64,000 bases of DNA from Patescibacteria group bacterium (lineage in GTDB: Bacteria > Patescibacteriota > JAQUNI01). How positions within the stretch are numbered: position 1 is the first letter of the stretch; every line of letters begins with the position of its first letter. The notes under the pieces were generated by a model that ran no database searches, was not told where the DNA came from, and saw only the letters and a list, made by a program, of their open reading frames with translations. The stretch spans positions 143,451 to 207,450 of the forward strand of contig JAQUNI010000001.1 in the NCBI GenBank assembly GCA_028717685.1, in the 5' to 3' direction. Below, piece by piece: positions 781 to 61,255 of the stretch. A program made the position numbers and the translations under genes.

Positions 781-960
781 TAATTTCTAATTTTAAATTT
801 CTATTAAATCTTCAATTCTTTTAATCTTCAAACCTCAAATCTTCCTCAAGCTTTTAATCATACCAAATGCAACAAATCTTATTCTGTAAGAAGTTTAAAA
901 ATTGATTCATTAAAAATTTAATAGAAATTATAAATTGAAAATTAGAAATTTATTCTCTAT
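781..960. repeat. Promoter-proximal inverted-repeat element, family A copy 1 (AATTTCTAATTTTCAATTT arms of AGAAATT-type heptamers)
   Basis: The left arm is aatttttaatttctaattttaaatttctattaaat. The right arm, aaaaatttaatagaaattataaattgaaaattagaaatt, is its reverse complement. It lies between the hpf stop and the secA start. Confidence 0.6.
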
Positions 961-964
961 CTGA

Positions 965-1330
965 TTATTTACGCCAACGCCATATCTTCACCCACCTCTT
1001 CCAGCTTCTCTCCTCGCCGCGCTTTTTATCCCGCATCTTGGTTTTAAATTTGCGAATCTCTTGAATCATTTCCTCTCGGCAAATATCAATAGCGGCATAC
1101 AGATCCTGGGCTTCTTCTTTGGTATAAAAACGATTGCCCCTTATTTCCAGCATCACTTCCGCGTAAAAAACATTGCCCTTGCGGTGACGTTTATTGAGCG
1201 CCACTTCTACCCGCGCCAGCTGAATATCATTCAAGAACTTAGCGAGAGACCCGATTTTTTCTTCAATATAACTCTTCATTTTCTCATCCAGATTTAAATT
1301 TTTCGCTCTGACTTTGATTTGCATAGACAA
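965..1330 (-). CDS. hpf: Ribosome hibernation promoting factor / RaiA family protein
   Basis: 121 aa. MSMQIKVRAKNLNLDEKMKSYIEEKIGSLAKFL...VEVALNKRHRKGNVFYAEVMLEIRGNRF is typical of the HPF/YfiA sigma-54 modulation protein family. Confidence 0.8.
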   Translation of the reverse strand: MSMQIKVRAKNLNLDEKMKSYIEEKIGSLAKFLNDIQLARVEVALNKRHRKGNVFYAEVMLEIRGNRFYTKEEAQDLYAAIDICREEMIQEIRKFKTKMRDKKRGEERSWKRWVKIWRWRK

Positions 1331-1375
1331 AAGTTAAAAGTTAAAAGTGAAAAGGTAAAAGTAAATGCTTTTATT
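1331..1375 (-). promoter_or_regulatory. CUUUUAA-type heptamer leader array directly upstream of the hpf start codon
   Basis: The coding strand reads acttttaccttttcacttttaacttttaacttttgtct followed by ATG. There is no Shine-Dalgarno sequence. The same array precedes ftsW, atpB and atpA. Confidence 0.5.
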
Positions 1376-1377
1376 TC

Positions 1378-2334
1378 TTATTCAAATCCAATAAATTGAA
1401 CCTCGGTTTCTAAAATTATTCTGTATTTTTTGTACACTTCTTTTCGCACTAAATCAATTAAATCCAAAACATCTTTGGCTTTGGCTTCTCTCTCATTCAC
1501 AATGAAATTGGCGTGCTGCTCGGAAATTGCCGCTCCCCCCATCGTCTTATTCTTTAAGCCCAGTTTTTCAATCAAACAAGCCGCCTTGATTTCACCATAC
1601 TGAACGCATTCAGATGGCACATTTTTTAAAAACCGTTCTCCTTGCTTTAAAGGAATATTTTTAAAAACCGAACCCGCGCAATTCTTATAAGGATGACGCG
1701 CCCGCACTGCTTTAGTCCTTTCAATCTTTTCTAAAATTCTTTCTTTATCTGGAGCGGGCTCAAAGACAAAGAGAGCGTCTAGAATAATATTGTGATTTTT
1801 TTTAAAGGCACTTTCCCGATAGCCAAATTGACACTCCTTTTGGGTATAAATTTTGACCTGCGAATGCTTCGGATCTAAAACCCAAACGGTCTTGACTTTT
1901 TCACCGATAAAATGTCCAAAGGCGCCCGCATTGCCATAAATCGCGCCGCCCACTGTGCCGGGAATGCCAGAGAGATCCTCCAGACCCGCCAAACCTTGAT
2001 TTAATGATTCTCGGATTAACGCTCCCAAAGCCAAACCCGCGCCACAATGAATTTCTCGGCCGCGGCATTCTAGTTCTTGATTGGCAATTTGAATCACTAA
2101 ACCCCGAAAACCGCTATCAGCCACAAGAACATTGCTCCCGCCTCCCAATGTATAATAAGGCAATTTAAAATCCTGGGCTACATCTACCGCCTTTATTATA
2201 TCCTTTTTGTTTTTAGCCGTAAAAAAATAATCTGCCGGTCCCCCAATTTTAAAAGTAGTATATTTTTTTAAATCTTCACTAATCCTTAAACCAGCTAATT
2301 CTTTTCTTAAACCCTTTGAAAAAATGTCTATCAT
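1378..2334 (-). CDS. murB: UDP-N-acetylenolpyruvoylglucosamine reductase
   Basis: 318 aa. An FAD-binding domain (TLGGGSNVLVADSGFRGLVI) and a MurB C-terminal domain are present. It sits in the dcw cluster context next to murC. Confidence 0.9.
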   Translation of the reverse strand: MIDIFSKGLRKELAGLRISEDLKKYTTFKIGGPADYFFTAKNKKDIIKAVDVAQDFKLPYYTLGGGSNVLVADSGFRGLVIQIANQELECRGREIHCGAGLALGALIRESLNQGLAGLEDLSGIPGTVGGAIYGNAGAFGHFIGEKVKTVWVLDPKHSQVKIYTQKECQFGYRESAFKKNHNIILDALFVFEPAPDKERILEKIERTKAVRARHPYKNCAGSVFKNIPLKQGERFLKNVPSECVQYGEIKAACLIEKLGLKNKTMGGAAISEQHANFIVNEREAKAKDVLDLIDLVRKEVYKKYRIILETEVQFIGFE

Positions 2335-2487
2335 TGACTTTGGAATGAAAAATTGTATAATTCAATAATCCCTTTAAAATAGGGAGGTCGAAGCGCCGCT
2401 ATTTTCTAGTATGCGGAGCTGTGATTCTTAAGTCCGATCAATAATTACAAAACACTTAGCGCCTTTCTGAAACTGGAAAGGGAATAA

Positions 2488-2706
2488 ATGGAGGAAATTG
2501 AAATGGATAACATTGTGGATGCCTATGTTGTATCTACAGTTGGAGGAAAAATAGACTGGTACTATTGCCTAATCAAAGACACAGGGAAAAAAATCCTAGC
2601 CCAGGCAAAGCATCAGCAAACGGAAATCCCAAAGGAAACGAAGGTCAAGATCAAACTTGCCACTAATAATGATACCATGGGGACAATAACGGAAATAGCA
2701 CATTAA
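2488..2706 (+). CDS. Small hypothetical protein (72 aa)
   Basis: An ORF in the murB-murC gap on the opposite strand, with a weak upstream purine-rich stretch (ggaaaggg). No recognisable family. Confidence 0.25.
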   Translation: MEEIEMDNIVDAYVVSTVGGKIDWYYCLIKDTGKKILAQAKHQQTEIPKETKVKIKLATNNDTMGTITEIAH

Positions 2707-2789
2707 GAATAATATGCTCACTACAATGGAAAAAATATGAAATCATCTATCCATTGTGGTAAAATGATCTTTTTTCAAGCCAGGAGATA

Positions 2790-6504: not shown

Positions 6505-6588
6505 TGATAACGAATTACGAATTTCGAATCACGAATTACGGAAAACCAATTTATAACCGTGATTCGTAATTCTTAATTCGTGAATCGA
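6505..6588. repeat. ATTCGTAATTCG-type heptamer and inverted repeats in the murG-ftsW spacer
   Basis: cgaattacgaatttcgaatcacgaattacg ... gtgattcgtaattcttaattcgtgaatcg. This is the same motif family as the in-frame repeats in atpB and the giant gene. Confidence 0.55.
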
Positions 6589-7680: not shown

Positions 7681-7725
7681 ATCAAAGTTAAAAGTTAAAA
7701 GTGCAAAGTTAAAAGTTCAGTTCAA
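7681..7725 (-). promoter_or_regulatory. CUUUUAA-type heptamer leader array upstream of ftsW
   Basis: The coding strand reads gaacttttaactttgcacttttaacttttaactttgatttg followed by ATG. Confidence 0.45.
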
Positions 7726-7770
7726 AATTTTAAATTTATTCCTTAAACTTTAAACTAGTAACTGCCTGCC

Positions 7771-7822
7771 CGCTCACGCGCTTCGCCAGCAGGCTTGTGA
7801 GCAGGCGGGTAACTTTGGACTT
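7771..7822. repeat. GC-rich palindromic repeat, family D (CTGCCTGCCCGCTCAC...GTGAGCAGGCGGG)
   Basis: A second copy lies at 59655-59740. Both are in intergenic spacers of dcw genes. Confidence 0.55.
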
Positions 7823-7890
7823 TGAATTTTTAACTTGAAACTCTTCTTCTATAATAAAAATGAGCCACTTAACTATTCCGTCTATATCCC

Positions 7891-8859: not shown

Positions 8860-8996
8860 AAATTTAAAATTAATCCTTCAACAAATTTCAGGATTAATGC
8901 TGAGCAAAGCCGAAGCATTAACCCTTCAGCAAAGTTCAAAAATAATATTGAACAAAGCCGAGGTATTAAAGTTTCTTTAGGAGTATTCAATCGCGA

Positions 8997-9105
8997 ACCC
9001 CGTTACAGAACTTCGTTCTCTAACCCCATCTAGAAATTTATTTCTAACGGGGCTGACGGTTTTCGCTGACCCCATTAAATGTTTACTATCCAACGGGGTG
9101 AATAA
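8997..9105. repeat. Family B palindromic unit cluster (degenerate CCCCGTTAGAAAT...ATTTCTAACGGGG)
   Basis: gaaccccgttacagaacttcgttctctaaccccatctagaaatttatttctaacggggctgacgg...ccaacgggg. It lies between the gpmI stop and the PfkB kinase start. Confidence 0.5.
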
Positions 9106-9138
9106 AATTTACAAAGATGAGAGCCACGGGAGTGTGGA

Positions 9139-10725
9139 TTATTTCAGCAATACTTCCAGAAGATTGATTCCCGTCATCTCTTTAGGTTTGGGGATGTCCA
9201 GGAACGCTAAAACTGTGGGCGCGATATCGGAAATTAGCCCTAAAGGATAACTCCCGTCAATATAATCAAGTGCGCTCTCTCTCCCCTTGCCTTTTAAATC
9301 TTCAGCAATCAAAATGACAGGCACGGGGTTACTACTATGTTTTGTCTCGGTGGTACCGGTCTTAAGATCTAATAATTCTTCCGCATTTCCATGATCTGCG
9401 GTTATAATAAGAGCGCCGCGCTGCGCTAAAACCTCATTCACAATTTGCTCTAAGCATTTATCCATGAACTCAACCGCTGAAATAGTAGCGGTTAAGTTCC
9501 CCGTATGACCCACCATATCTGGATTGGCAAAATTCACTACTATAAAGTCATATTTCTTTGCTTTCAATTCTTGGATAATACGCTTCGTTACCTCCGGAGC
9601 ACTCATCTGGGGTATTTCGGCATAATTTTTATTCCTTGGGGAGGGGATCAACACATAATCCTCACCCGGCCAGGGTTTTTCATATCCGCCATCAAAAAAA
9701 TAAGTTACATGGGCATATTTCTCAGTTTCAGCAATATGCATCTGGAAAAGTCCTGCCCGGCTTAATGTTTCCGCTAAAGTCATTTTTATTTTTTCCTCCT
9801 GAAAAGCCACATGAGATGGACAATTTTTACTATAAGCTGTCATGCCTACAAAAAACAAATCACGGATTTGTTTACCGCGTTCAAACTTTTTGAAATCATC
9901 TTCTATAAAAGCGCTGGTAATTTCGCGCGCCCGATCTGCCCGATAATTAAAAAAGATTAAAGCATCATGATCTTGCACTAATCCGACCGGTTTGTCATTT
10001 TTATCCACGATAACCAAGGGCTCAATATTTTCATCAAAAATATTTTGAGCGTAATAAGATTTAATTTCCTCATAAAAATTCTGTATCTTTTTGCCTTGCC
10101 CTTGCGCCATCATCCCATAGGCCTTCTCTACCCTATCCCAATGATTATCGCGGTCCATTGCAAAAAAACGGCCGCAGAGAGTAGCCACCTTCCCAATTTT
10201 TAAAGTGTGAATTTGGGAATCCAAAATTTTTAGATAAGAAAGACCGGCCTGCGGAGCAGTATCGCGCCCATCTAAAAAAGCGTGAATAAAAACGTCTTTA
10301 ACATCTTCCCCTTTAACTAGCTCCAAGAGGGCAAAGAGATGATCCATATAACTATGCACACCGCCAGAGCTCAATAACCCCATTAAATGCAAACGGGAAT
10401 TATTCTTTTTGACATGTTCTATTGCTTCCAAAAAAGCAGGAATTTTAAAAAATGAACCGTCTTCAATAGCGTTATTAATCTTAGGCAAGTCCTGTAAAAT
10501 GAGCCGTCCCGAACCTAAATTTAAATGCCCAACTTCGGAGTTGCCCATTTCCTGCCAAGGCAAACCAACAGCCTCCCCTGACGCTTGCAATGTGGCGGCG
10601 GGGAATGTTTTAGCAAGATCATTAAAAACAGGGGTCTGCGCTTCCCTCACAGCGTTCACCCGCGTCGGCGGACCAATGCCCCAACCGTCTAAGATAATTA
10701 AAACTACGGGACGATACTTTTTCAT
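9139..10725 (-). CDS. gpmI: 2,3-bisphosphoglycerate-independent phosphoglycerate mutase
   Basis: 528 aa. Starts MKKYRPVVLIILDGWGIG and contains a metalloenzyme domain with conserved Ser/His/Asp residues. Confidence 0.92.
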   Translation of the reverse strand: MKKYRPVVLIILDGWGIGPPTRVNAVREAQTPVFNDLAKTFPAATLQASGEAVGLPWQEMGNSEVGHLNLGSGRLILQDLPKINNAIEDGSFFKIPAFLEAIEHVKKNNSRLHLMGLLSSGGVHSYMDHLFALLELVKGEDVKDVFIHAFLDGRDTAPQAGLSYLKILDSQIHTLKIGKVATLCGRFFAMDRDNHWDRVEKAYGMMAQGQGKKIQNFYEEIKSYYAQNIFDENIEPLVIVDKNDKPVGLVQDHDALIFFNYRADRAREITSAFIEDDFKKFERGKQIRDLFFVGMTAYSKNCPSHVAFQEEKIKMTLAETLSRAGLFQMHIAETEKYAHVTYFFDGGYEKPWPGEDYVLIPSPRNKNYAEIPQMSAPEVTKRIIQELKAKKYDFIVVNFANPDMVGHTGNLTATISAVEFMDKCLEQIVNEVLAQRGALIITADHGNAEELLDLKTGTTETKHSSNPVPVILIAEDLKGKGRESALDYIDGSYPLGLISDIAPTVLAFLDIPKPKEMTGINLLEVLLK

Positions 10726-10740: not shown

Positions 10741-10905
10741 AAATAATCTAAAACATCTCTGAAAATTTCTAATTTTCAATAAATCAATTTTTAAACCTCT
10801 CACAGAATAAAGTTTATTGTATTTGATTTGATTAAAGGCTTGATGGGGATTTGAGATTTGAAAATTAAAAGAATTAAAAATTTAATAAAAATTGAAAATT
10901 AGAAA
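10741..10905. repeat. Family A inverted-repeat element, copy 2, upstream of gpmI
   Basis: The left arm is tgaaaatttctaattttcaataaatcaattttt. The right arm is aaaatttaataaaaattgaaaattagaaattagaaatt. Confidence 0.6.
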
Positions 10906-12198
10906 TTAGAAATTATTTATCTGTTCCTCAATTTCCATCAGCCGATTATACTTACAAATCCTCTCACTCCGAGAAAGGGAGCCGGTCTTGATTTGTCCTG
11001 CCCGTGTCCCCACGGCTAAATCAGCGATAAAAGTATCGCAAGTTTCACCTGAACGATGAGAAATAATCGTGTCAAAATTATTTTTTTGGGCTTCTCTAAT
11101 ACAATCCAAGGTTTCCGTTAAAGTGCCGATTTGATTTAACTTGATTAAAATTGCATTTGCTGCCTTTTCTTGAATCGCTCGCTTTAATCTCTGAAGGTTG
11201 GTCACTAAAAGATCATCGCCAATAATTTGAACTTTCTCTCCTAATTTCTGCACAAGCGAAATCCAGCCTTGCCAATCATCTTCAGCTAAACCATCTTCAA
11301 TGACGGAAATCGGATACTTTTCCACCCATTCACAATAAAGACCGACCATCTGATCGCTGGAGAGAGACAAGCCTTCATTTTTAAAAAGATAGCTTCCTTG
11401 CTCAAAGAAAGAGCTTGCCGCCACATCTAAACCCAAAACAAAATCCACAGGCATTTTAAAACCGCCTCTCGCCATTGCTTCAACAACAAGCTCTACCGCC
11501 TGCTGATTAGAATCCAGATTAGGCGCCAATCCTCCCTCGTCGCCCACATTAGTATTATACCCTTTCTCTTTACACAGTTCGCGCAAACAATGAAAAACTT
11601 CGCTGCCCATTCTCACCGCTTCAGTAAAACTCCCTGCCCCTGCTGGAACCGCCCAAAACTCCTGAAAGGATAAACGATTATCCGCATGTTTCCCGCCTTC
11701 TAAAAGATTGAAACAGGGCATCGGCAAATCTTCGGAAATTGGTTTAATTATAAAACTATCTTTATTGTTGCTCGGCACAGATGAAAGTTTGCGAATCCAT
11801 TGCCAAAGTTCTAATTTTTGCATTTGAGCGGCAACACGGGCAACACCCAAAGAGACAGAAAGAATCGCATTTGCCCCCAAACGGGATTTATTCTCCGTGC
11901 CATCCAGCCCCATCATCCGCTCGTCAATCTCTTTCTGTTTTACAACATCCATACCCTTTAAGGCTTCTAAGATTTCATTATTGACATTCTTGCAAGCTGT
12001 AAGCACCCCTTTACCTAAATATCTTTTCGGGTCATTGTCCCGTAATTCCCACATCTCAAACTTACCCGTCGAAGCTCCCGAGGGTACCGCGGCTTTTGCT
12101 TTCAAACCATTATCTAAAACAATTTTTGTTTCAATTGTCGGCTCGCCGCGGGAATCTAAGATCTCCCGGGCTTTAATGGTTTTTATTTTAGAGGACAT
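10906..12198 (-). CDS. eno: Enolase (phosphopyruvate hydratase)
   Basis: 430 aa. Starts MSSKIKTIKAREILDSRGEPTIE. The full enolase N- and C-domains are present. Confidence 0.95.
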   Translation of the reverse strand: MSSKIKTIKAREILDSRGEPTIETKIVLDNGLKAKAAVPSGASTGKFEMWELRDNDPKRYLGKGVLTACKNVNNEILEALKGMDVVKQKEIDERMMGLDGTENKSRLGANAILSVSLGVARVAAQMQKLELWQWIRKLSSVPSNNKDSFIIKPISEDLPMPCFNLLEGGKHADNRLSFQEFWAVPAGAGSFTEAVRMGSEVFHCLRELCKEKGYNTNVGDEGGLAPNLDSNQQAVELVVEAMARGGFKMPVDFVLGLDVAASSFFEQGSYLFKNEGLSLSSDQMVGLYCEWVEKYPISVIEDGLAEDDWQGWISLVQKLGEKVQIIGDDLLVTNLQRLKRAIQEKAANAILIKLNQIGTLTETLDCIREAQKNNFDTIISHRSGETCDTFIADLAVGTRAGQIKTGSLSRSERICKYNRLMEIEEQINNF

Positions 12199-12235
12199 AA
12201 ATTAAATTTAAAATTCAAAACTAAAAATGAAAAAT

Positions 12236-12345
12236 TATCATCGCTTTGCGAGATCTCGCGAAGCGAGACAATGCAAAATTTTAAAAATTTTTATCATTTT
12301 TACATTTTAATTTGTCATTTTGATTTTTAATTTTTACACTTTACA
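12236..12345. repeat. Family C palindrome (TCGCTTYGCGAGATCTCGCGAAGCGA) plus TCATTTT heptamer tail
   Basis: A 26-bp perfect palindrome centred on AGATCT. A near-identical 60-bp copy lies at 59580-59650, and a partial copy at 56286-56320. Confidence 0.6.
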
Positions 12346-14149: not shown

Positions 14150-14298
14150 GAATAAATTTTTAATTTTCAATTTCTAATTCTTTTAATTTATAAACCATTT
14201 ACCCAATGGAAAATTTAAAATTGCTAATGGGTTTTGAAAATTCATTCATTAAAAATTTAATGAAAATTAAAAATTAGAAATTGAAAATTCTTTATCGT
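14150..14298. repeat. Family A inverted-repeat element, copy 3
   Basis: The left arm is aaatttttaattttcaatttctaattcttttaattt. The right arm is aaaaatttaatgaaaattaaaaattagaaattgaaaatt. The centre is acccaatggaaaat...gctaatgggtt. Confidence 0.6.
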
Positions 14299-15170: not shown

Positions 15171-15180
15171 AAAATATAAT

Positions 15181-18279: not shown

Positions 18280-18317
18280 AGAATTCTAATAAGAAAATGC
18301 ATTAAAGAAGTATGTAT

Positions 18318-18412
18318 AATTCAATCATTGTTTCATTGTTGTTTTATTTTAGCAATGAAACAATGGAGCGAGGGCGAAGCCCGAGCGAGAACAATGAAAC
18401 AATGATTCTGTA
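18318..18412. repeat. TGAAACA-motif inverted repeats (caatcattgtttcattgttg...caatgaaacaatg...aacaatgaaacaatgattc)
   Basis: Same motif as the murC in-frame 8-mer repeat and as 39801-39850. Confidence 0.55.
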
Positions 18413-18414
18413 AA

Positions 18415-19899: not shown

Positions 19900-20028
19900 A
19901 AAATTTTCAATTTTCAGTTTCTAATTTCTATTAAATTTTTAATGAAATAATTTTTAAACAATAAAAAACTACAGCTTAGGAATTAAAAATTAGAAATTTA
20001 ATAAAAATTAATAATTGATCATTGAAAA
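19900..20028. repeat. Family A inverted-repeat element, copy 4
   Basis: The left arm is attttcaattttcagtttctaatttctattaaattttt. The right arm is aattaaaaattagaaatttaataaaaatt. Confidence 0.55.
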
Positions 20029-21360
20029 TTAATCTAAAATCTCTACCAACTTCTTGGTCAAACTTTTGCGTTCAAACTTTATCAACTCACCGTCCGTTAA
20101 TTCATACCTTAATATTCCTCCCCTCTGCCATTCGGAAAACAATTCCCAAAGTTTCTTTTTAATCCCCGCGATGTCCTGCGGTTCTATAATCTCGCCCACT
20201 CCCAGTTGAGTCAAAAAATCACGACAAGCTCCTTGCGGGATAAGAGCTAAAATGGGTTTGCGGGCGCGAAGATGCTCAAAAACCTTGCCGTGGATGTATG
20301 ATGAACGACCGCGCATTGGTCTGTCCACAAGCAAAAGAACATCTGAAATCAAACGATATTGGACAGCCTCTATATGCGGCTTTAAACCCAAAACCTTTAC
20401 CCGCGTACCCAAGCCCGTCCTATGAGCCATCTTTTTCTCTTCCAAAGTTAAATTCCCCAAGAAAAAAACTTGCGTTTTGGCTTTCATCTCGGGGTGTTCT
20501 AAAAAAAGTTCTTTTAATGCCTGCAGAAAATAACGTGGCGTGTTTCCAGGATGCGAATAATAAAAAGCCCCCGTGTGAGAAATAATAAAGTATTTCTCCA
20601 ACCTTTTGAACTTATCCAAATCTCTTTCCGCCAAGATAAAATCCTGCTCGTCATAACCATTGAAAAGGAGTGTGATTTTATCCCTATACTTCTTAAAATA
20701 CTCCCCGACATCTGGCGACGTCACTAAAATTTGATCACAATTCTTGACCACCGCGGTTTCCAAAATTTTTTCTAAGAAAAGGCGAGCAGGGGAGTGGGTT
20801 AAGACTGGTTCCAAGGAATCCAGACACCACCCGTCGCGGAAATCAGCGATCCACTTTACATAAGTGCATCTTTTTAAAAATAAACCGAGCAGGTGAGAGG
20901 TAGCGGGCGGAAAAGAGGACACTACATACTCTACCCTATATTTTTTAATAATCCAAAGGGCGTAAAAAAAAGCAAAAACTAACCAAGTAATCTTGGAATC
21001 CGGGAATAAAAACCAAGTTTTGATGAATTGTTTAATCCTGGCTTGCCAAAAATTGTTCTTAATTTCCGAATAGCCAGCAATATTTTGATTACTTCCTCCC
21101 CCTTCTTTGACTACTAAATTACGCAATTCCCCTGCCCGATACACCAAGGCCTCTTTATCCTCGCGACGTTTTTTCCTGTCCAATCTCTTTGCTAAAGTAA
21201 AGCTCTTCATCCGATCGTAGCGCCGCGAGAAATAAGAAGTAGTTAAAACAATCGGGCACACACCAAAATCCGGCAAATACTTTACGAATTTTTCAATTCT
21301 CTGCGTGCCGGCGTTATTGACTGGAGGATAGTAGTAGGCGAGAAATAAAATATTTTTCAT
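20029..21360 (-). CDS. Glycosyltransferase (GT4/GT-B-like)
   Basis: 443 aa. Starts MKNILFLAYYYPPVNNAGTQRIEKFVKYL, with a C-terminal GT-B half. Confidence 0.7.
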   Translation of the reverse strand: MKNILFLAYYYPPVNNAGTQRIEKFVKYLPDFGVCPIVLTTSYFSRRYDRMKSFTLAKRLDRKKRREDKEALVYRAGELRNLVVKEGGGSNQNIAGYSEIKNNFWQARIKQFIKTWFLFPDSKITWLVFAFFYALWIIKKYRVEYVVSSFPPATSHLLGLFLKRCTYVKWIADFRDGWCLDSLEPVLTHSPARLFLEKILETAVVKNCDQILVTSPDVGEYFKKYRDKITLLFNGYDEQDFILAERDLDKFKRLEKYFIISHTGAFYYSHPGNTPRYFLQALKELFLEHPEMKAKTQVFFLGNLTLEEKKMAHRTGLGTRVKVLGLKPHIEAVQYRLISDVLLLVDRPMRGRSSYIHGKVFEHLRARKPILALIPQGACRDFLTQLGVGEIIEPQDIAGIKKKLWELFSEWQRGGILRYELTDGELIKFERKSLTKKLVEILD

Positions 21361-21361: not shown

Positions 21362-21517
21362 AGGTGTAAAAATAATTTCCAATTTTCAATTACTAATTTC
21401 TATTAAATTTTCAATTACTTAATTTTTAAACTATTTGCCCCGTTTGGAAATTTTTCATTTCTAACGGCGTTTGAAAATTGATTCATTAAAAATTTAATGA
21501 AAATTAAAAATTAGAAA
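21362..21517. repeat. Family A inverted-repeat element, copy 5, with a family B palindromic core
   Basis: The left arm is aatttccaattttcaattactaatttctattaaatttt. The right arm is aaaaatttaatgaaaattaaaaattagaaattaaaaatt. The core is ccccgtttggaaatttttcatttctaacggcg. Confidence 0.6.
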
Positions 21518-22675
21518 TTAAAAATTTTCACTAATACTTACTGAACTTCTTATAAAATCTTTTGTTATCTTCTCCCAATTAAACTCCGCTTTCACCCTCC
21601 GACGCCCTGCTTCTCCCATCTTCTTCCTTAAATTCTCGTCTTCCAAAAGCTGAATCACCTTGAAAGCTAAATCCTTAGGGTTTTCTGGGTCAACCAAAAA
21701 TCCTGTTTCGCCATCAATAATGGCTTCAGGTATGCCGCCTGATCTGCCGCCAATTACGGGACAACCGCAGGCATTCGCCTCCAAAAAAACCATCCCAAAA
21801 CCTTCCACGTCCTCGCGAATCTGCCTAGAAGGCATCAAAAAAATATCTGCTAAATTGTAAAGGCGGGGTAAATCCGCATCCCGCACAAAACCAATAAACT
21901 CCACCGCTTCTTGAATTCTAGGATCGGAACTTTTTTCTACCATTGCACGCAACCTTGCTTCATCCGGCCCCTTGCCTCCTATAAGATAAATGGTGTTGGG
22001 GAATTTTTCCAAAATCGCGGGCAAAGCGCGAATCACCAAATCAAAACCCTTGCGGCTGACGAGCCGCGAAACCGAAAGAAGAATTTTTTTTTCGGGAGGA
22101 ATATGATATTTTTTCTTCACCTCTGCCGTTGCCAAACCAGACCGGAAACAGCTACCGTCCACTCCCGGATAAATCACGCTAATCTTTTCCGCTGGCAAAC
22201 CCAAAAGTGACATTTCTTCTTTGGTAAAATTGCTGTTCGCGATCCCGCCGGCAGCCTCTTTGTAAATTATCTTCACTAAATAACGCAAAAAACGCGATTT
22301 CCGCATCGCTAAAATATCCAAACCATAAGCCCAGACAAAATAGGGAAGACCCAAAAGCTTTTTTAAAACCCACGCCGCAAGGTAGGAAGCAAAACCATGG
22401 GCGGCTTGCACAAATTCCACTTTCTCTTTTAAGGCAATCCAAAGGCTAAAAAAGGGGGAAACAAGCCATTTTGGTTTGGAAAAACGCGTCTCTAATCCTC
22501 TTCTATAAATCGGATAATTCTGCCATCGGTCAAAATCCCGGCCGAATTCTCTCCTTTTATTCGTTAAGACCACCACTTTCCCTTTTGGCAATCTTTTAAT
22601 GATATTATGCAAACACAACTCAATACCCCCCGTAGCCGGACAAAAAATGGTCGTGATGAATAAATTTTTCCGCAT
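21518..22675 (-). CDS. Family 4 (group 1) glycosyltransferase
   Basis: 385 aa. Contains EGFGMVFLEANACGCPVIGGRSGGIPEAI, a canonical GT4 EX7E region. Confidence 0.85.
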   Translation of the reverse strand: MRKNLFITTIFCPATGGIELCLHNIIKRLPKGKVVVLTNKRREFGRDFDRWQNYPIYRRGLETRFSKPKWLVSPFFSLWIALKEKVEFVQAAHGFASYLAAWVLKKLLGLPYFVWAYGLDILAMRKSRFLRYLVKIIYKEAAGGIANSNFTKEEMSLLGLPAEKISVIYPGVDGSCFRSGLATAEVKKKYHIPPEKKILLSVSRLVSRKGFDLVIRALPAILEKFPNTIYLIGGKGPDEARLRAMVEKSSDPRIQEAVEFIGFVRDADLPRLYNLADIFLMPSRQIREDVEGFGMVFLEANACGCPVIGGRSGGIPEAIIDGETGFLVDPENPKDLAFKVIQLLEDENLRKKMGEAGRRRVKAEFNWEKITKDFIRSSVSISENF

Positions 22676-24077: not shown

Positions 24078-24084
24078 AGATGTA

Positions 24085-24245
24085 TGATTAAAATTATTCT
24101 AATTGACCTAATTATTCTAATTATTCTAAAAAATGACCAATGTCCAAGCACCAATGAATCAATTAATAACAGAATTAGGTAATTGGGATTTAGTTATTAG
24201 GATTTATTTAGGTTAATTAGAACAATTAGAATAATTAGAATAATT
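24085..24245. repeat. Family E nonamer array element (AGAATAATT / AGGTTAATT units in inverted arms)
   Basis: aattattctaattgacctaattattctaattattctaa ... ttaggttaattagaacaattagaataattagaataatt. A second copy is at 40455-40590. Confidence 0.6.
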
Positions 24246-24246
24246 T

Positions 24247-34507: not shown

Positions 34508-35935
34508 TTATCTCTTAAAATACTTCTCAATCATTTCCGGCTTCACTCTCTTTAACTCGGACTGCGGTAAAATAGACAAAAGTTCCCAGCCCAAACTCAA
34601 TGTTTGAATAATGTCACGATCCTCATATTCACCTTGGCGGACGAATTTGTCTTCAAAGAGAGAGGCAAACTTTAAATATTTTTTATCGGTTTCATCCAAA
34701 CTCTCTTCGCCCAAAATCACGGCTAATTCTTCCACTTCCTTACCGCGGGCATAAGAAGCGAATAACTGATTTAAAACACCGGAATGATCCTCGCGGGTTT
34801 TACCTTCGCCGATTCCTTTGTCTTTAAGCCGGGAAAGGGAAGGTAAAACATCCACGGGCGGAAAAATCCCCTTGCGGTGCAATTCGCGGCTAAACATAAT
34901 TTGGCCTTCGGTAATGTAACCGGTTAAATCGGGCACGGGATGGGTTTTGTCGTCCTCGGGCATGGAAAGGATCGGAATCTGCGTGATGGAACCGGGCTTG
35001 CCTTTAATGCGCCCCGCGCGTTCATAAATTGTAGAAAGGTCGGTATAAAGATAACCCGGATAACCACGCCGACCCGGAATTTCTTTGCGCGCCGCCGAAA
35101 CTTCGCGCAAGGCTTCACAATAATTAGTCAGATCAGACATAATGACTAGTACATCCATTCCCTTTTCAAAAGCCAAATATTCAGCGCAGGTTAAAGCCAT
35201 TCTGGGCGTTGCAATCCGCTCCACCACGGGATCATTAGCAAGGTTAATAAACAGCACCGAACGCTCAATCGCTCCGGTTTTCTTAAAATCATTTTGAAAA
35301 AAATTCGCCTCATCAAAAGTGATACCCATCGCCACAAACACCACCGCAAACTTCGTCTCTTTTCGGTCTTTATTCCGTGATTCGTGATTCGTGATTCGTG
35401 ATTCGGTATGCCGTAAATCCCAGCGCATCTTTGCCTGCCTCGCGATTTGAGCCGCAAGGCGCGCGTGCGGCAGACCAGCGCCCGAAAAAATAGGCAGTTT
35501 CTGACCACGCACCAGCGTGTTCATGCCGTCAATCGTGGAAACGCCGGTTTGAATAAATTCATCGGGATAAGAACGGGCATAAGGATTTAAAGGCAAACCA
35601 TTGATATCTAATTCTTGGTCTGGAATAATTCTAGGTCCGCCATCAATCGGCTTGCCCGCGCCAGAAAACACCCGACCTAGAATATCCTCGGATACCGGCA
35701 GTCTCAAACCTCGTCCCAAGAATTTGACCTTGGTGCCAGCACGCGGCACGCCTTGCGGCGCTTCAAAGAGCTGGATTAAGGTGAGCTCGCGTCCGGCTTC
35801 CAGAACCTTGCCTAGTATTTTGCGACCTTCTTTTGTTTCCACTTCCACTAATTCTTCATACTTTGCGCCTTCAATCTTTTCCAAAATTATTAAAGGTCCC
35901 GCAATTTCTTTCACTGTTTTATAAGCTTTGGACAT
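34508..35935 (-). CDS. atpB: V/A-type ATP synthase subunit B (regulatory), with an in-frame heptamer-repeat insertion
   Basis: 475 aa with a V-type B fold. At 35374-35401 the sequence (gattcgt)x4 is translated as [12 protein letters not shown] inside an approximately 25-aa loop insertion. Confidence 0.92.
35374..35401. repeat. Heptanucleotide tandem repeat (GATTCGT x4) inside the atpB coding sequence
   Basis: gtgattcgtgattcgtgattcgtgattcg. The unit length of 7 means any copy-number change would shift the frame. Confidence 0.8.
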
Positions 35936-35937
35936 AA

Positions 35938-35985
35938 AAATAAAGTTAAAAGTTAAAAGTGAAAAGGTAAAAGCTATTGCACATC
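35938..35985 (-). promoter_or_regulatory. CUUUUAA-type heptamer leader array upstream of atpB
   Basis: The coding strand reads gcaatagcttttaccttttcacttttaacttttaactttatttttATG. Confidence 0.45.
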
Positions 35986-35987
35986 AA

Positions 35988-37739: not shown

Positions 37740-37740
37740 A

Positions 37741-37790
37741 GTTTAAAAAAGCTAAAAATTAAAAGCGAAAAGCTAAAAGTTAAAATTCTT
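37741..37790 (-). promoter_or_regulatory. Heptamer leader array (AGCTTTT/AACTTTT) upstream of atpA
   Basis: The coding strand reads gaattttaacttttagcttttcgcttttaatttttagcttttttaaactATG. Confidence 0.4.
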
Positions 37791-37794
37791 CTAA

Positions 37795-39801: not shown

Positions 39802-39900
39802 TGTTTCACCGTTTCATTGTTGAAAATCCGACAATGAAACAACCTCTCGCCTTTAACTAAAGATAAAAGAGTGAAAACAATGTAACAATAGCCTGTTACT

Positions 39901-40371: not shown

Positions 40372-40454
40372 AAATTTAGGACGAATTTATGTCGGGGAAA
40401 TTTATTTGTATTTAACTAATCTTCCCACATAAATCCGCTATTAAACTTTATAAA

Positions 40455-40590
40455 TTTCTAATTCCTAATTGACCTAATTAACCTAAACAATAACTAATGA
40501 TTAATGCCAAAATGTCTAAATATTTGGTCATTCTGAAATTGGTCATTGGACATTATTTAGAATAATTAGAATAATTAGAACAATTAGGTT
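40455..40590. repeat. Family E nonamer array element, copy 2 (between atpI and atpK)
   Basis: ctaattgacctaattaacctaaac ... ttagaataattagaataattagaacaattaggttaatt. It uses the same 9-mer units as 24085-24245, in reversed order. Confidence 0.6.
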
Positions 40591-47247: not shown

Positions 47248-47250
47248 AGT

Positions 47251-47350
47251 TTGTAATCAGTAATTGGTAATTAGTAACTAGTAATTCCGCAGACCAAATG
47301 TAGTTATCCCCAATTACTGATTACTGATTACTAGTTACTAATTACTAATT
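47251..47350. repeat. 100-bp near-palindrome built from TTACTRA heptamers, in the DUF296-dnaJ spacer
   Basis: The left arm is gtaatcagtaattggtaattagtaactagtaatt. The right arm is aattactgattactgattactagttactaattactaatt. Confidence 0.7.
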
Positions 47351-48094: not shown

Positions 48095-48380
48095 TCAAAT
48101 CACCTCTATTTTCTTTAATGGCCAGATTGTAGGATAAATAATTTTAAAATTAAAAATAGCCAATACCTCTCCATAACCAAAACCGCCCCACTAATCCCAT
48201 AACTTAATGGTTTTGGTTTTGGCAAGTACACCCCGCAAGATATTTTGTCCGCGGGGGCGAGGCCCATTTTCAAGAAGATTTTTTCATCTTCTCATTCCTT
48301 CTCGCTAATCTCTAGAGAATTAGCGAGAAGGTATACGAAAAGATAATCTTCCACTAAGTAAGGCAATAAAGAACGATTTA

Positions 48381-48427
48381 CCCCATTAGAAATAAACCGG
48401 GATTAGGAACAAAGTTCTCTAACGGGG
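48381..48427. repeat. Family B palindromic unit abutting the dnaK stop codon
   Basis: ccccattagaaataaaccgggattaggaacaaagttctctaacgggg. Confidence 0.55.
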
Positions 48428-48428
48428 T

Positions 48429-51608: not shown

Positions 51609-51771
51609 TATTAATTTATGAATTGTGAATTGTGAATCCCACCTACGCCCTTCGGGCTTCCACCTTCGCTGAAGCTTCGGCGGACAGGTCGGTGGGCAGG
51701 CATGAATTAGGGATTGAATTTTATAATTTATTATTCCTGATTCCTTATTCCTACTTCCTGATTCCTAACTA

Positions 51772-56140: not shown

Positions 56141-56334
56141 AATTTTGTTCTCAAATTTTCAATTCTCAATTTTTAATTTTCATTAAATTTTTAATGAATA
56201 AATTTTCAAACCCCGTTAGAAATGATAAATTTCTAAACAGGGCAAACAGTTTAAAAATTAAGTAATTGGAAATTTAATAGAAATTGTCTCGCTATGCGAG
56301 ATCTGGCGAAGCCAGAAAAATTAGAAATTAAAAA
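56141..56334. repeat. Family A inverted-repeat element, copy 6, with family B and C cores
   Basis: The left arm is aaattttcaattctcaatttttaattttcattaaattttt. The cores are ccccgttagaaatgataaatttctaaacaggg and tgtctcgctatgcgagatctggcgaagcca. The right arm is aaaattagaaattaaaaatt. Confidence 0.55.
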
Positions 56335-57621
56335 TTATTTTCTAGACCATTCTTCGTTCTGCCTCACGAGCAGTTCCCGCGCGCGCAAGGGTTCAAACAT
56401 TATGTCTTTAACAATCTTTTCCATCCGCATTGCCTGCGAACCCTTTACGAGAATAATATCATTAGGTTTTAAAATATTCTCAATATCCTCCAAAACCTCG
56501 TCAGTGTAATTATATTCAACGATTCTCTCTTCCGTCATTCCAGCCCGCCGCGCTTCATCCGAAGCAAAATTCGCTCGGTCGCCGACCGTGATTAAAAGGT
56601 CAGCCATTGAACGGGCAACCCGCCCCACCTCTCTGTGACCTCTTTCTGTTTCTGTCCCCAGCTCCAGCATATCGCCCAAAATTGCCACTCTTCTCCTTCC
56701 GGCGGGCGCAACTTCCGCTAACGCGCGCAAAGCGGCGATCATAGAGACAGGCGCGGCATTATAAGTATCGTCAATAATTAAACTATTTTTGATCCCGGGG
56801 AGCATGCGCATTCTGCCTGCTGGCGCTTGAAAATGTTTCAGGCTTTCCGAAATCTTAATCAAATTCATTTTAAAATAAATCCCAACGGCGGCGGCGGCGA
56901 GCGCGGCATAAATCTGATGCCGACCCAAAACTTTTGGCAAATGCACCGGCACACTATTGCCTTTGTAGTTTAATTTGAAGCCTAACCCCCCTTGATTGGA
57001 GATGACACGAATATCTGAAGCCACTATTTCTTCTCGCAAAGGACTTTCCTCATCCTTTAACAGGCCATATTTTAGAATCGGCGACCGACCCTTCATTTCC
57101 GCCACGCGGGGATCATCTCGGTTCAAAACAACAAGACCATCAGCCGCGACTCCCTTGACTAACTTTTCCTTCTCGTCCCGAATCGCTTCTTGCGACGCGA
57201 AAAATTCCAGATGTGAAGGACCAACGGCAGTAACTACGGCGACGTCAGGCCGCGCGATATTCACCAAATAACCAATATCTCCAGGTCGATCCGCGGCCAT
57301 TTCTAAAACTAAAATTTCCGGATATTTTTTGGTCTTGATTAAAACGAGCCGCAAAGCCTGCCCCAAAACATTAAGCCAAGCGCCGATGTTCCTCGCGGGC
57401 GCTTTCACGCCGATAATGGCGAATGGCACTCCCAATTCATTATTATAATTCTCCGCGCTTTTGCGTACCCGTCCAGGAAAGGCGGCGGCAAGGACTGTAT
57501 AGATAGCGTCTTTGGTGGATGTTTTTCCCACGCTGCCAGTCACCGCCACGATCTTGGGGCGGTGTTTTTTCAAGATTTTCCGAGCAGATAAAGCGAGAAT
57601 TTTTTGAAGGAAAGTTTTCAT
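56335..57621 (-). CDS. murF: UDP-N-acetylmuramoyl-tripeptide--D-alanyl-D-alanine ligase
   Basis: 428 aa with a Mur ligase P-loop (VTGSVGKTSTKD) and C-terminal domain. Confidence 0.9.
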   Translation of the reverse strand: MKTFLQKILALSARKILKKHRPKIVAVTGSVGKTSTKDAIYTVLAAAFPGRVRKSAENYNNELGVPFAIIGVKAPARNIGAWLNVLGQALRLVLIKTKKYPEILVLEMAADRPGDIGYLVNIARPDVAVVTAVGPSHLEFFASQEAIRDEKEKLVKGVAADGLVVLNRDDPRVAEMKGRSPILKYGLLKDEESPLREEIVASDIRVISNQGGLGFKLNYKGNSVPVHLPKVLGRHQIYAALAAAAVGIYFKMNLIKISESLKHFQAPAGRMRMLPGIKNSLIIDDTYNAAPVSMIAALRALAEVAPAGRRRVAILGDMLELGTETERGHREVGRVARSMADLLITVGDRANFASDEARRAGMTEERIVEYNYTDEVLEDIENILKPNDIILVKGSQAMRMEKIVKDIMFEPLRARELLVRQNEEWSRK

Positions 57622-57782
57622 AACTCTAAATTTTTATTTCTTAATTTTTAATTTTTAATTTTTAACTAATATTTATTTGCTTATTGATTTATTGCATTGC
57701 CAGGGTCAAATAATTCAATAAGACATTAAAACAATAAAAATCAGCTAAAAATTAAGAAATAAAAATCAAAAATTAAGCATTC
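57622..57782. repeat. Family A inverted-repeat element, copy 7
   Basis: The left arm is aaatttttatttcttaatttttaatttttaatttttaac. The right arm is gctaaaaattaagaaataaaaatcaaaaattaag. Confidence 0.55.
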
Positions 57783-59543: not shown

Positions 59544-59579
59544 GATAAAATCAAAATTTAAAAATCAAAATGTAAAATG

Positions 59580-59740
59580 ATCATCGCTTCGCGAGATCTC
59601 GCGAAGCGAGACAATGTAAAATTTTAAAAATTCTTTTCATTTTAACATTTTAAACTGCCTGCCCGCTCACAAGCTTCGCGGGAGTGCGAGGCGGGCGGGT
59701 CATTTTGATTTTTGCCTGCCTGGCGGCAGACAGGATTTTT
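59580..59740. repeat. Family C palindrome copy 2 immediately followed by family D palindrome copy 2
   Basis: atcatcgcttcgcgagatctcgcgaagcgagacaatgtaaaattttaaaaatt ... ctgcctgcccgctcacaagcttcgcgggagtgcgaggcgggcggg ... gcctgcctggcggcagacagg. Confidence 0.6.
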
Positions 59741-59745
59741 GCATT

Positions 59746-60114
59746 TTAATTTTTTATTAAAGCTACAACCGTGCCTTCGGAAGAGATATAAACAACCTTC
59801 TGAAGCGGCACCATATTTAATTTTTTAACCCCCTCTTCCACATTCCGCACGGATTGCAACTCTGCCGCGCGTAATTCTAATTCACGATTCTCTTCTTTCA
59901 AATTATCAAGTCTATCTTCTAAATCTTTAATCTCATAGCCCTTCGTAGCTATTTGATTGGCTTGAGTGAGATAGAAAAGACTGATTAGACACAAAAGAAT
60001 AATCGTCACAAAACACAAAGTAACCGGCCCAATTTTGATCTTCCCCCTAATTGCTTTTTTTCTTTTTCCTCTTTGAATATCACCGCTCTTGGAAAGTGTA
60101 AGAAAACGCGCCAT
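59746..60114 (-). CDS. ftsL: Cell division protein FtsL-like (septum formation initiator family)
   Basis: 122 aa with a single TM helix (IGPVTLCFVTIILLCLISLFYL) followed by a coiled coil. Located between rsmH and ftsI. Confidence 0.6.
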   Translation of the reverse strand: MARFLTLSKSGDIQRGKRKKAIRGKIKIGPVTLCFVTIILLCLISLFYLTQANQIATKGYEIKDLEDRLDNLKEENRELELRAAELQSVRNVEEGVKKLNMVPLQKVVYISSEGTVVALIKN

Positions 60115-60149
60115 TTTTCAAATCTTGACTAATCCCCCTTTTTCTTTGA

Positions 60150-61085
60150 TTAGCCAACAATTTTTTCCGCGACGCGCAAAAGTGCGCTTCGCGATCGTGG
60201 ATTTTGTTTAATCTCTCTAATTTCTGGCTTAGTTGGTTTTTTATTTAAAATTTTGATTTGCGACAAATGGCCACAAATGCATTGCGGCACTTCTGGCGGA
60301 CAAAGACAGCCGCGGCTCTCGGTGCGGAAAAAATTTTTCACTATTCTATCCTCCAAAGAATGAAAAGAGATAATCACGAACCTTCCTCCCCGCTCTAAAA
60401 TCTCTAAAGACTGCGGCAGCACTATGCGCAGATTTTCTAATTCATTATTCACGGCGATTCTCAAGGCTTGAAAAATCTTGGTTGCCGGATGAATCCTGCC
60501 TTTTTGAAAAGATGCCACTTTCAAAATAATCTTAACTAAATCTTGTGTTGTTCCTATCTTCTGCGCTTTGCGTGCTTCTACAATCAGACGGGCAATTTCG
60601 CGCGCTTTCCGCTCTTCTCCATATACGCGCAAAATCCGCGCCAAATCTTCTTCATTATAATGATTCACGATATAAGCGGCGGTAATCCCCGTCTCTTCGC
60701 CATGCCGCATATCTAATGGCTCATCTTTCAAAAACGAAAAGCCACGGTCTGAAGACTCAAGTTCAAGAGAAGATAGACCCAAATCCAGCAACACACCTTG
60801 CGCATTTTTAAAATGATGCTCCTCTACAACTTTTTTTAAATCGGCAAAGTTACCCTGGACCAAAACGGCGCGCCCGCCAAATTCTTTTAGATTCTCGCGC
60901 GCGATTTTGATACTCGCCGCGCTCCAATCAATACCAAGTAATTTTCCCTCCGGGCCAGTGCGCTCTAAAATAGCTCGCGCGTGGCCCGCTCCCCCTATGG
61001 TGCAGTCAATGAAGTTTTGATTGGATTTTGGATTTAAATATTTAATTACTTCCTCTAATAAAACTGGTGTATGAACTATATTCAT
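60150..61085 (-). CDS. rsmH: 16S rRNA (cytosine1402-N4)-methyltransferase
   Basis: 311 aa. Contains the MraW signature (IDCTIGGAGHARAIL ... GVLLDLGLSSLELE). Confidence 0.92.
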   Translation of the reverse strand: MNIVHTPVLLEEVIKYLNPKSNQNFIDCTIGGAGHARAILERTGPEGKLLGIDWSAASIKIARENLKEFGGRAVLVQGNFADLKKVVEEHHFKNAQGVLLDLGLSSLELESSDRGFSFLKDEPLDMRHGEETGITAAYIVNHYNEEDLARILRVYGEERKAREIARLIVEARKAQKIGTTQDLVKIILKVASFQKGRIHPATKIFQALRIAVNNELENLRIVLPQSLEILERGGRFVIISFHSLEDRIVKNFFRTESRGCLCPPEVPQCICGHLSQIKILNKKPTKPEIREIKQNPRSRSALLRVAEKIVG

Positions 61086-61255
61086 CTTGAGGACAATTTT
61101 TAATTTCTAATTTTCAATTTTCATTAAATTTCTATTTACTTAATTTTTAAACAAATAAAGATCAAACTCTCATAATCTGCTTACCGTAAAATCTAAGGGT
61201 TTAGAAATTATTTCATTAAAAAATTTAATAGAAATTAGAAATTGAAAATTAGAAA
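61086..61255. repeat. Family A inverted-repeat element, copy 8
   Basis: The left arm is aatttttaatttctaattttcaattttcattaaattt. The right arm, aaatttaatagaaattagaaattgaaaattagaaatt, is its reverse complement. Confidence 0.65.

Follow-up and report, generated by a model that had tools for sequence, protein, structure and literature searches.

Heptamer-array palindromes at gene junctions of a Patescibacteria genome: probable miniatures of an intervening-sequence-like selfish element

Short inverted repeats built from AGAAATT-type heptamers stand immediately 5' of many start codons in the genome of a Patescibacteria group bacterium, which raises the question of what these repeats are and why they occupy such positions. 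The stretch analysed here (the window) comprises 64,000 nt of contig JAQUNI010000001.1 (assembly GCA_028717685.1, positions 143,451 to 207,450). Eight copies were described in it by a first-pass annotation, which offered three explanations: promoters, hairpins in the 5' untranslated region (UTR) acting as attenuators or thermosensors, and a miniature inverted-repeat transposable element (MITE) with a target preference. The present analysis suggests that the eight loci are in all probability miniatures, lacking an open reading frame (ORF) through internal deletion, of a selfish element of Patescibacteria (the candidate phyla radiation, CPR) that resembles the intervening sequences (IVSs) of rRNA genes. 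They are neither promoters nor gene-specific regulators.

The repeat family and its ORF-bearing relatives

All eight repeat loci were recovered and the family was confirmed (Table 1). The word RAAATTNRAAATTNRAAATT, with at most one mismatch allowed, matched the window 25 times against 0.11 matches expected from shuffles, and every match fell within the eight loci, with the left arms on the - strand and the right arms on the + strand. An nhmmer profile built from the arms recovered 12 full arms and one partial arm in the window, all belonging to copies 1–6 and 8. Copy 7 (57622-57782) was missed by this profile and constitutes a sister subfamily of AAAAATT type, the arms of which are 76% complementary; the other seven loci form one family.

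Each arm is made of eight 7-nt units, namely four AATTTYY heptamers, an ATTAAAT hinge and three inner units ending in AAAC. The arms thus measure about 56-58 nt rather than the 30-35 bp first reported, and the loops, at about 10-80 nt, replace the supposed variable core of 60-100 bp. Within the heptamer the AATTT core is invariant and positions 6 and 7 vary. The inner units occur in two versions, Y (TTTTAAT GAATCAA TTTTCAA) and X (TTCCAAT TACTTAA TTTTTAA), which gives each element a polarity. The units of the arrays are imperfect and most commonly four in number, a conserved hinge and inner arm are joined to each array, and the ends of the elements are crisp. The hinge, the inner arms and the cores are non-repetitive and are common to several copies in both orientations; for instance, the core of copy 1 (roughly 50 nt) recurs in copy 2, and the loop of copy 5, with its nested ccccgtt..aacgggg hairpin, recurs in copy 6, in each case in the opposite orientation. 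At least 120 metagenome contigs also carry the arm-plus-hinge pattern, in many cases as two convergent occurrences separated by 87-137 nt.

The origin of the inner arms became apparent from relatives of the element that carry a gene. In loci L116, L119, L163 and L126 (locus labels of this study) the same heptamers and hinge flank an ORF of 124-128 aa that scores 52-59 bits on PF05635 (cut-off 33.8), the 23S-rRNA intervening-sequence protein family, also known as S23p, 'four helix bundle' or Avd-like. Such an ORF was detected by tblastn in 14 to 15 of 120 pattern-selected metagenome loci, and a further ORF-bearing copy was found at the dprA/topA junction. In full-length form the element measures about 500 bp. 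It begins with about four AATTTYY heptamers, the ATTAAAT hinge and TTTYA, followed by the ATG of the roughly 125-aa ORF, and after the ORF end GTT TAA it continues with a short 3' segment and then an ATTTAAT hinge before closing with four RRAAATT heptamers, so that the ORF starts in the Y inner arm and stops in the X inner arm.

The window copies match precisely these two ends. Their Y arms correspond to the 5' end of the full-length ORF through codon 6 (ATG AAT CAA TTT TCA AAC), and their X arms to the full-length end from GTT TAA AAATTAAG onward, that is, the last codon, the stop codon and the 3' segment. The Y arm of copy 1 carries the ORF-start remnant ATGAATCAATTTTTAAAC on the - strand, about 10 ORF codons are retained in the Y arm of copy 4, and in the degenerate Y half of copy 2 (about 10762-10800) the ATG has mutated to ATA. 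No ORF remnant was found by tblastn at E < 1e-3 in the loops of the window copies. Since only the two ends of the ORF are matched, the copies are, as judged by sequence comparison, shown to derive from a PF05635-bearing element by internal deletion.

In 14 of 14 cases an ORF-bearing copy runs in the same direction as the genes on either side of it, which fits expression of the ORF by read-through transcription. The polarity of the ORF-less copies relative to the genes is random, at about 16:14 overall (about 4:3 in the window and 12:11 in the metagenomes). The ORF family is large, with over 2,200 clusters at 90% identity, is named 'four helix bundle protein' by its sources, and has its named best matches in Patescibacteria; it also matches PDB 2RLD (five chains) at E = 4e-13. 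PF05635 has been reported to be homologous to Avd of diversity-generating retroelements (PMC10053308), which makes a nucleic-acid-handling role of the ORF plausible. A viral origin was rejected, with only 2 matches among IMG/VR contigs. In one relative (L087) such an ORF lies between arms of a different heptamer family.

Table 1. Copies of the element, other arrays and palindromes in the window (window positions), and heptamer arrays flanking PF05635 ORFs in other bacteria
Feature	Position	Strand	Context and details
Copy 1	775-950	-	S30AE/HPF-like gene / secA gap; arms 775-838 (X), 888-950 (Y)
Copy 2	10741-10914	+	enolase / gpmI gap; partly decayed; good X arm 10850-10914
Copy 3	14155-14290	-	GT2 / DUF4012 gap; full Y arm 14223-14290, partial arm 14155-14179
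Copy 4	19902-20030	+	443-aa GT4-like gene / Wzy-like gene gap; arms 19902-19961 (Y), 19970-20030
Copy 5	21374-21527	-	GT4/GT1 gene / 443-aa gene gap; arms 21374-21439 (X), 21461-21527 (Y)
Copy 6	56153-56336	+	murF / tRNA-Glu; arms 56153-56219 (Y), 56242-56336 (X)
Copy 7	57629-57781		ftsI / murF gap; AAAAATT/AAGAAAT heptamers; arms 57629-57698, 57712-57781
Copy 8	61094-61257	-	mraZ / rsmH gap; arms 61094-61154 (X), 61192-61257 (Y)
Other array or palindrome	1331-1377
Other array or palindrome	6505-6588
Other array or palindrome	7681-7890		nested GC-rich hairpin repeat inside
Other array or palindrome	12199-12345		nested GC-rich hairpin repeat inside
Other array or palindrome	18280-18414		nested GC-rich hairpin repeat inside
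Other array or palindrome	24078-24246
Other array or palindrome	35936-35987
Other array or palindrome	37740-37794
Other array or palindrome	39802-39900
Other array or palindrome	40372-40588
Other array or palindrome	47248-47349
Other array or palindrome	51609-51771		nested GC-rich hairpin repeat inside
Other array or palindrome	59544-59745		nested GC-rich hairpin repeat inside
Nested GC-rich hairpin repeat	56286-56315		30 nt; splits the outer arm of copy 6
Nostoc flagelliforme			(ATTCGTA)4 5' of ORF, (TTACGAA)4 3' of ORF
Planktothrix			CCCCAAT and CGTAAAT arrays flanking ORF
Euhalothece			(ACTGGTC)13 flanking ORF

Placement and turnover at gene junctions

The elements lodge in the few nt between the stop and the start of tightly packed, mostly co-directional genes, including genes within operons. 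All host genes, like nearly every gene of the window, are on the - strand, and Pfam confirmed secA, gpmI, DUF4012, Wzy-like, GT4, murF, ftsI, rsmH and mraZ. Copies 6, 7 and 8, together with a further heptamer palindrome (59544-59745), lie inside the conserved division and cell wall (dcw) gene cluster with its mraZ-rsmH-ftsL-ftsI-murF operon. The closest GTDB representative by RsmH is only 57% identical, and near relatives (94% protein identity) are labelled Parcubacteria or 'Candidatus Doudnabacteria' by their sources.

The statement that the copies always stand directly 5' of start codons holds for most of them, but copy 6 ends 74 nt from tRNA-Glu, and the start-proximal half of copy 2 ends 36 nt from the gpmI ATG. 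The elements are equally near to the upstream stop and the downstream start. In five of the eight copies the stop codon lies inside the outermost heptamer; the X arm of copy 2 overlaps the enolase stop codon (10906-10908), the Y arm of copy 8 that of mraZ, and in copy 4 the upstream stop codon falls within the last heptamer of the 19970-20030 arm. Across genomes, 11 of 16 stop codons are at most 4 nt away from the first heptamer, frequently as a TAA made with the AA of AATTT, and the last heptamer ends 5-13 nt 5' of the start codon in 11 of 14 cases. Elements were present at 78 of 465 co-directional, 8 of 65 divergent and 2 of 56 convergent junctions. Copies scattered randomly with respect to gene starts had been named as the outcome that would overturn the first description; elements occupy 86 of 530 junctions that contain a gene start, against 2 of 56 convergent ones.

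It had also been pointed out that the host genes have no Shine-Dalgarno (SD) sequence. This is correct and applies to the genome at large: an SD-like 4-5-mer between -22 and -4 was present in only 15 of the 57 called window genes (26%). The absence of SD sequences as a special property of the elements was accordingly rejected, since it is a genome-wide trait.

A comparison of the window with two relatives, L083 and L208, the genes of which are about 93% identical, provided the check on related strains that had been called for, and filled, empty and replaced sites were all observed. Gain, loss and replacement of the elements far outpace the divergence of adjacent genes and of ordinary spacers. 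An ordinary spacer (ScpA/GT4) is 90% identical, whereas element-bearing spacers are 53-66% identical and unrelated control pairs 53-62%. In L208 the copy 5 site holds no element, and the two genes there share an ATGA overlap; conversely, L208 holds an element (L208 11390-11597) where the window has 10 nt (15171-15180), and in this pair the insertion junction is not clean and none could be defined. The copy 7 site in L083 is occupied by a non-homologous AAAATGC-type element. In relatives at 65-76% identity, the positions of copies 3, 4 and 5, as well as the DUF4012/enolase junction, show 8, 16 or 22 nt or a gene overlap. The copy 3 junction consists of 8 nt only in L211 (76% identity), the two genes at the copy 4 junction overlap in L212, and the copy 8 junction has 18 nt in L085 (65% identity). 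The window arms are more similar among themselves (score 34.8) than to the arms at the same sites in sister genomes (13-28), which possess an arm subfamily of their own.

Further differences between these genomes were seen at related repeats. L208 carries LDcluster4-like and NAPRTase genes (about 2.3 kb, L208 14507-17068) where the window has an AAAATGT-type palindrome (12199-12345), the 3' half of which is found past the extra genes; this suggests that the elements mark sites of gene gain and loss. In L084 (8990-9200) the tRNA-Glu(CTC) downstream of murF is interrupted in the anticodon region by a second, complete tRNA-Glu(CTC) flanked by a GC-rich hairpin repeat, and only the inner tRNA is called by ARAGORN.

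Known systems and competing explanations

The closest known counterpart is the rRNA IVS. In Coxiella the 23S IVS is a selfish element of 428 nt in which inverted repeats pair into a stem that RNase III cleaves; its loop contains the S23p ORF, and strain-variable tandem GACAGAT heptamers lie just 5' of the ATG (PMC4990558). S23p-bearing rRNA IVSs are hosted by Coxiella burnetii, Leptospira, Brucella and Xanthomonas (PMC4990558). The elements described here share with them terminal inverted repeats able to form a long stem, a PF05635/S23p ORF in the loop that runs along the host transcript in the full-length relatives, heptamers 5' of the ORF start, a patchy distribution among close relatives and a deletion-prone ORF (a 176-bp deletion is found in one Coxiella strain), and rRNA IVSs, too, are regarded as selfish. 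They differ in lying between protein-coding genes or beside a tRNA gene rather than in 23S rRNA helices; no window copy is inside a 23S (or 16S) rRNA gene, and the window contains no rRNA gene. Furthermore, the arms here are composed of eight heptamers, ORF-less miniatures outnumber ORF-bearing copies, and excision by RNase III, known for Coxiella (PMC4990558), is here an analogy. In architecture the elements are thus IVS-like, but they lack the location in rRNA that defines IVSs.

The proposal of a MITE with a target preference was right in part. Like MITEs, the copies are short, non-coding and multi-copy, have terminal inverted repeats, are present or absent among relatives, and are internally deleted forms of a longer, ORF-bearing element; they also sit preferentially at gene-start junctions. 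Unlike MITEs, they have no detectable target-site duplication, and the ORF-bearing element whose termini they share encodes a four-helix-bundle protein (PF05635) without known transposase activity. As no transposase was present among the window ORFs scanned either, a classical cut-and-paste MITE was rejected, and no consistent target duplication or recognisable transposase was found that would account for movement.

Comparison with other palindromic repeats is also instructive. REP and REPIN sequences (mobilised by RAYT) and the Correia elements of Neisseria are intergenic palindromes that are co-transcribed in operons and form hairpins; Correia stems are RNase III substrates, and Correia elements have a TA duplication and 26-bp repeats, while REPINs lack target duplications. 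The present elements are likewise intergenic palindromic hairpin repeats, but differ in their heptamer-array architecture, and no RAYT or IS200-like gene turned up in the loci examined, none of which is a whole genome. Rickettsia palindromic elements are tolerated in frame inside conserved genes. A comparable case in the window is a (CGAATCA)4 array with flanks (35367-35416) in the gene for V-type ATPase subunit B (34508-35935), which is in frame and adds about 19 residues in a loop of this highly conserved enzyme, as placed by alignment to Enterococcus hirae subunit B; in contrast to Rickettsia, what lies inside genes here is a single arm from another heptamer family and not a whole AGAAATT-family copy.

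Under the selfish-element interpretation, the elements would be co-transcribed with the host operon, and the host could bear them because their arms would pair into a long, imperfect, AU-rich stem; in predicted folds this stem leaves about 5-18 nt between the stop codon before it and the start codon after it. RNase III would probably cleave the stem, if the analogy with rRNA IVSs holds. For seven of the eight copies a hairpin better than those of shuffles is predicted (z = -3.2 to -6.5); the fold of copy 2 is no better than shuffles (z = -0.8). The 5'-UTR hairpin of the first-pass annotation is thus a plausible structural feature, but its gene-specific form, an attenuator or thermosensor, is unsupported, given random orientation, non-conserved orthologous sites and arms without covariation. 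In an Rfam scan of the window only two tRNAs reached the gathering score, and no match at E <= 1 overlapped any copy.

Several observations weigh against this interpretation. No ORF-bearing copy was found by tblastn within the 64-kb window, and the PF05635 ORF is no known transposase. The one exact ORF found in many contigs (P0212) was always between dprA and topA, so that the same ORF at several genomic sites was rejected. In 18 elements the two flanks of the same element shared words of 4.94 nt, against 5.18 +/- 0.19 nt for permuted flanks, which is no sign of target duplication; the sole suggestive case is copy 5, with a TTA(G)TGAAAA word (roughly 9 nt) on both flanks. In addition, the scarcity of elements at convergent junctions and the constant spacing from arm to start might each point to a function at gene starts instead of parasitism alone.

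This last point leads to the strongest competing explanation, namely a co-opted intercistronic RNA element, the stem of which would serve as an RNase III processing or stability site or as a stop-start bridge keeping translation coupled, with the A-rich arm 5-13 nt before the ATG acting as an SD-independent ribosome landing pad. It is considered rather unlikely, but has several observations in its favour: arm-to-stop and arm-to-start distances that are constant across unrelated genomes, the depletion at convergent junctions, the predicted hairpins, the low frequency of SD-like motifs, the cleavage by RNase III of the analogous Coxiella stem (PMC4990558), and a TATAAT-like box in L126 upstream of a short copy ending just before an ATG, which would put that copy within the 5' UTR. 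The constant geometry, however, also follows from insertion into spacers of roughly 10 nt. The sites are not conserved between genomes with 93% identical genes, and relatives manage with the short or overlapping junctions described above.

Pairing within the elements also speaks against such a role. The two arms of an element are no more complementary to each other than the arms of different elements. Among 19 two-armed elements (alignment A6, including copies 1, 4, 5 and 8), heptamers at equal distance from the hinge were identical in 6 of 76 comparisons, against 23.2 +/- 3.6 for permuted partners; standard pairs made up 86.5%, lower than in all 500 shuffles (89.2 +/- 0.5), and there were 2 compensated cells where 19.7 +/- 5.2 were expected. 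A structured RNA under selection was therefore rejected. Instead, C:G pairs are avoided (one of 19 elements has C:G at the variable position next to the hinge), and AATTTTC faces AATTTCT in 16 of the 19, so that the stem would oppose C to A and G to U once per heptamer, leaving five A-U pairs and a tandem wobble/mismatch. Because these words are assigned to the X and Y arms both ways, a single asymmetric ancestor fails to explain the difference. The avoidance of perfect complementarity could reflect the instability of long perfect palindromes, differentiated ends or a feature by which a folded strand is recognised.

It is improbable that the arrays are instead double-stranded DNA sites for an abundant host protein, such as a nucleoid-organising factor or an S23p pentamer that would act on the chromosome, with the palindrome as a secondary feature. 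The invariant AATTT core with its variable positions 6 and 7, the different words of the two arms (TTGAAAA-type and TTAGAAA-type), which pairing leaves unexplained, and the co-occurrence of arrays with PF05635 ORFs across phyla are consistent with such sites; the heptamer words are, however, wholly different between families and phyla, and individual sites turn over rapidly.

Replication slippage of heptanucleotide repeats in place, with hairpin-templated palindromes, no mobility and likeness by convergence, is very improbable. In its favour, units of seven nucleotides are, in many bacteria, the most frequent among long simple-sequence repeats, with slippage proposed as their cause; many different heptamer words occur in the window, and arrays are also found in frame inside genes. 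Slippage-type repeats would consist of near-perfect units that vary in number and lack unique flanks, however, and the arms found here have imperfect units, a fixed unit number (mode four) and crisp ends. The same architecture recurs in at least 120 metagenome contigs, and the inner arms correspond to the beginning and the end of an ORF. For this family the shared non-repetitive segments largely refute the slippage explanation.

The first proposal, an outward-facing promoter or UP-like A-tract array driving the downstream gene, draws on the AT-rich arm with phased A-tracts immediately 5' of start codons and on the fact that some bacterial palindromic repeats, such as Correia elements, carry promoters, but it is highly unlikely, since a consensus scan found no coding-strand sigma-70-like site within copies 2-5, total sigma-70 matches (37) are not above shuffles (30.9 +/- 4.5), the good matches are found in spacers that lack an element (16678-16650 and 22770-22742, the latter in a spacer that L208 conserves), copies lie within the dcw operon, and the sites of relatives are empty, with 8-22-nt or overlapping junctions that lack the element. 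Classical GC-stem plus T-tract terminators and TTGACA/TATAAT-like promoters were observed in the longer, element-free spacers.

Other arrays in the window and wider occurrence

The AGAAATT family is one of several. Period-7 self-similarity was detected in 22 regions of the window, against at most three for any other period from 4 to 12, and these regions occupy 16 of the 50 gaps of at least 30 nt (about 22 by eye). Six further families of heptamer-array palindromes, and related 8- and 9-mer ones, occupy other intergenic gaps (Table 1). The heptamer words include CTTTTAA, CGAATTA/CGAATCA, GTAATTA/GTAATCA, GGAATCA and AAAATGT/AAAATCA; the 8-mer unit CATTGTTT and the 9-mer unit AATTATTCT also build intergenic arrays and palindromes. 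Some arrays of the other families are single and stand directly 5' of a start codon. Array density per 10 kb was 0.73 in CPR-labelled loci and 0.06-0.07 in those of Chloroflexota or other phyla, the window being highest at 3.44.

Small GC-rich hairpin repeats, for example gtctcgcttcgcgagatctcgcaaagcgat and cgcctgctcac..gtgagcgggcaggcag, are nested in the AT-rich elements of the window and also in relatives L083, L084 and L208. A third small repeat, ccccgttagaaat...atttctaacgggg, forms hairpins at 8860-9138, at 48095-48428 and in the loops of copies 5 and 6 (about 21440-21460 and 56220-56241); the 8860-9138 region has extra copies of it compared with the orthologous spacer of L208. Arrays are read in frame in further genes. 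In a 1314-aa ORF (26465-30409), adjacent GGAATCA, AGAATCA and CGAATTA arrays (27207-27288) encode the 7-residue-periodic LESRIKDQESRIQDLETRITNYESQITEN. In rsmH of three other CPR genomes (L006, L007 and L035; about 10168-10217), residues about 57-72 are encoded by heptamer arrays of three different words, and the protein is 0-2 residues longer than the window RsmH.

PF05635 ORFs with heptamer flanks are not confined to CPR bacteria. A tblastn search of 72,556 plasmids with the ORF matched 30 records, mostly from Nostoc and other cyanobacteria and also from Bacteroidota, Treponema, Chlorohelix and Monoglobus. Of 13 such ORFs inspected (Cyanobacteriota, Bacteroidota, Spirochaetota, Chloroflexota and Bacillota), 21 of the 26 flanks bear a period-7 array, usually inverted, at a threshold of at least 15 of 21 self-matches that no other period from 4 to 11 reaches. 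CGAATTA, one of the window words, likewise stands beside a four-helix-bundle gene of Nostoc flagelliforme (L225). Heptamer-flanked ORFs were observed to split operons, including defence operons, at cas2/cas1, hsdS/hsdR, RND adaptor/permease and helicase/methylase junctions (L227, Anabaena cylindrica plasmid; L236, Monoglobus; L233, Chondrinema; L231, Chlorohelix; L226, Dolichospermum).

Heptamer arrays have been described before in Xanthomonas (GGGAATC) and in cyanobacteria, Nostoc among them, as short tandemly repeated repetitive sequences (STRRs) (PMC4692102), and as TAACTGA repeats in Beggiatoaceae, Cyanobacteria and Bacteroidetes (PMC4679880). Like those of the window, they are intergenic, often directly 5' of starts, and vary in sequence and length between close relatives; Xanthomonas has 70-75 convergent (inverted) pairs of arrays (PMC4692102). 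They were treated as simple-sequence repeats or G-quadruplex motifs, without mention of S23p or IVSs (PMC4692102; PMC4679880), whereas in the present family they form the well-delimited ends of a discrete element that also contains a hinge, inner arms and, when full-length, an ORF. No description of CPR heptamer palindromes, or of a link between S23p or four-helix-bundle proteins and heptamers, was found in the literature searched, except for the note on the Coxiella IVS.

A broader and more tentative suggestion is that heptamer-flanked PF05635 genes form one widespread, unrecognised class of selfish elements in CPR bacteria, cyanobacteria, Bacteroidota, spirochaetes and Chloroflexota, of which the rRNA IVS would be one niche. 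ORF-less miniatures and solo arms of this class may then lie behind many of the heptanucleotide arrays at start codons (CCCCAAT STRR, TAACTGA and GGGAATC), and the periodic C-A and G-U mismatches of the stem might be read on a folded single strand, of DNA or RNA, by the pentameric protein.

For the organism, these findings mean that such elements take up roughly 5% of the window, in a supposedly streamlined CPR genome, and occupy about a third to half of the intergenic gaps; they break short-read assemblies and mark sites where relatives differ in gene content. The nature and mobility of rRNA IVSs and S23p have been in question since the early 1990s, as have the heptanucleotide arrays of cyanobacteria, Xanthomonas and Beggiatoaceae. 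Inverted heptamer arrays around a PF05635 ORF, together with gene-less miniatures, link the two questions, and the size of the family (over 2,200 protein clusters), together with the many insertion differences between related genomes, makes both testable by comparative genomics and simple biochemistry.

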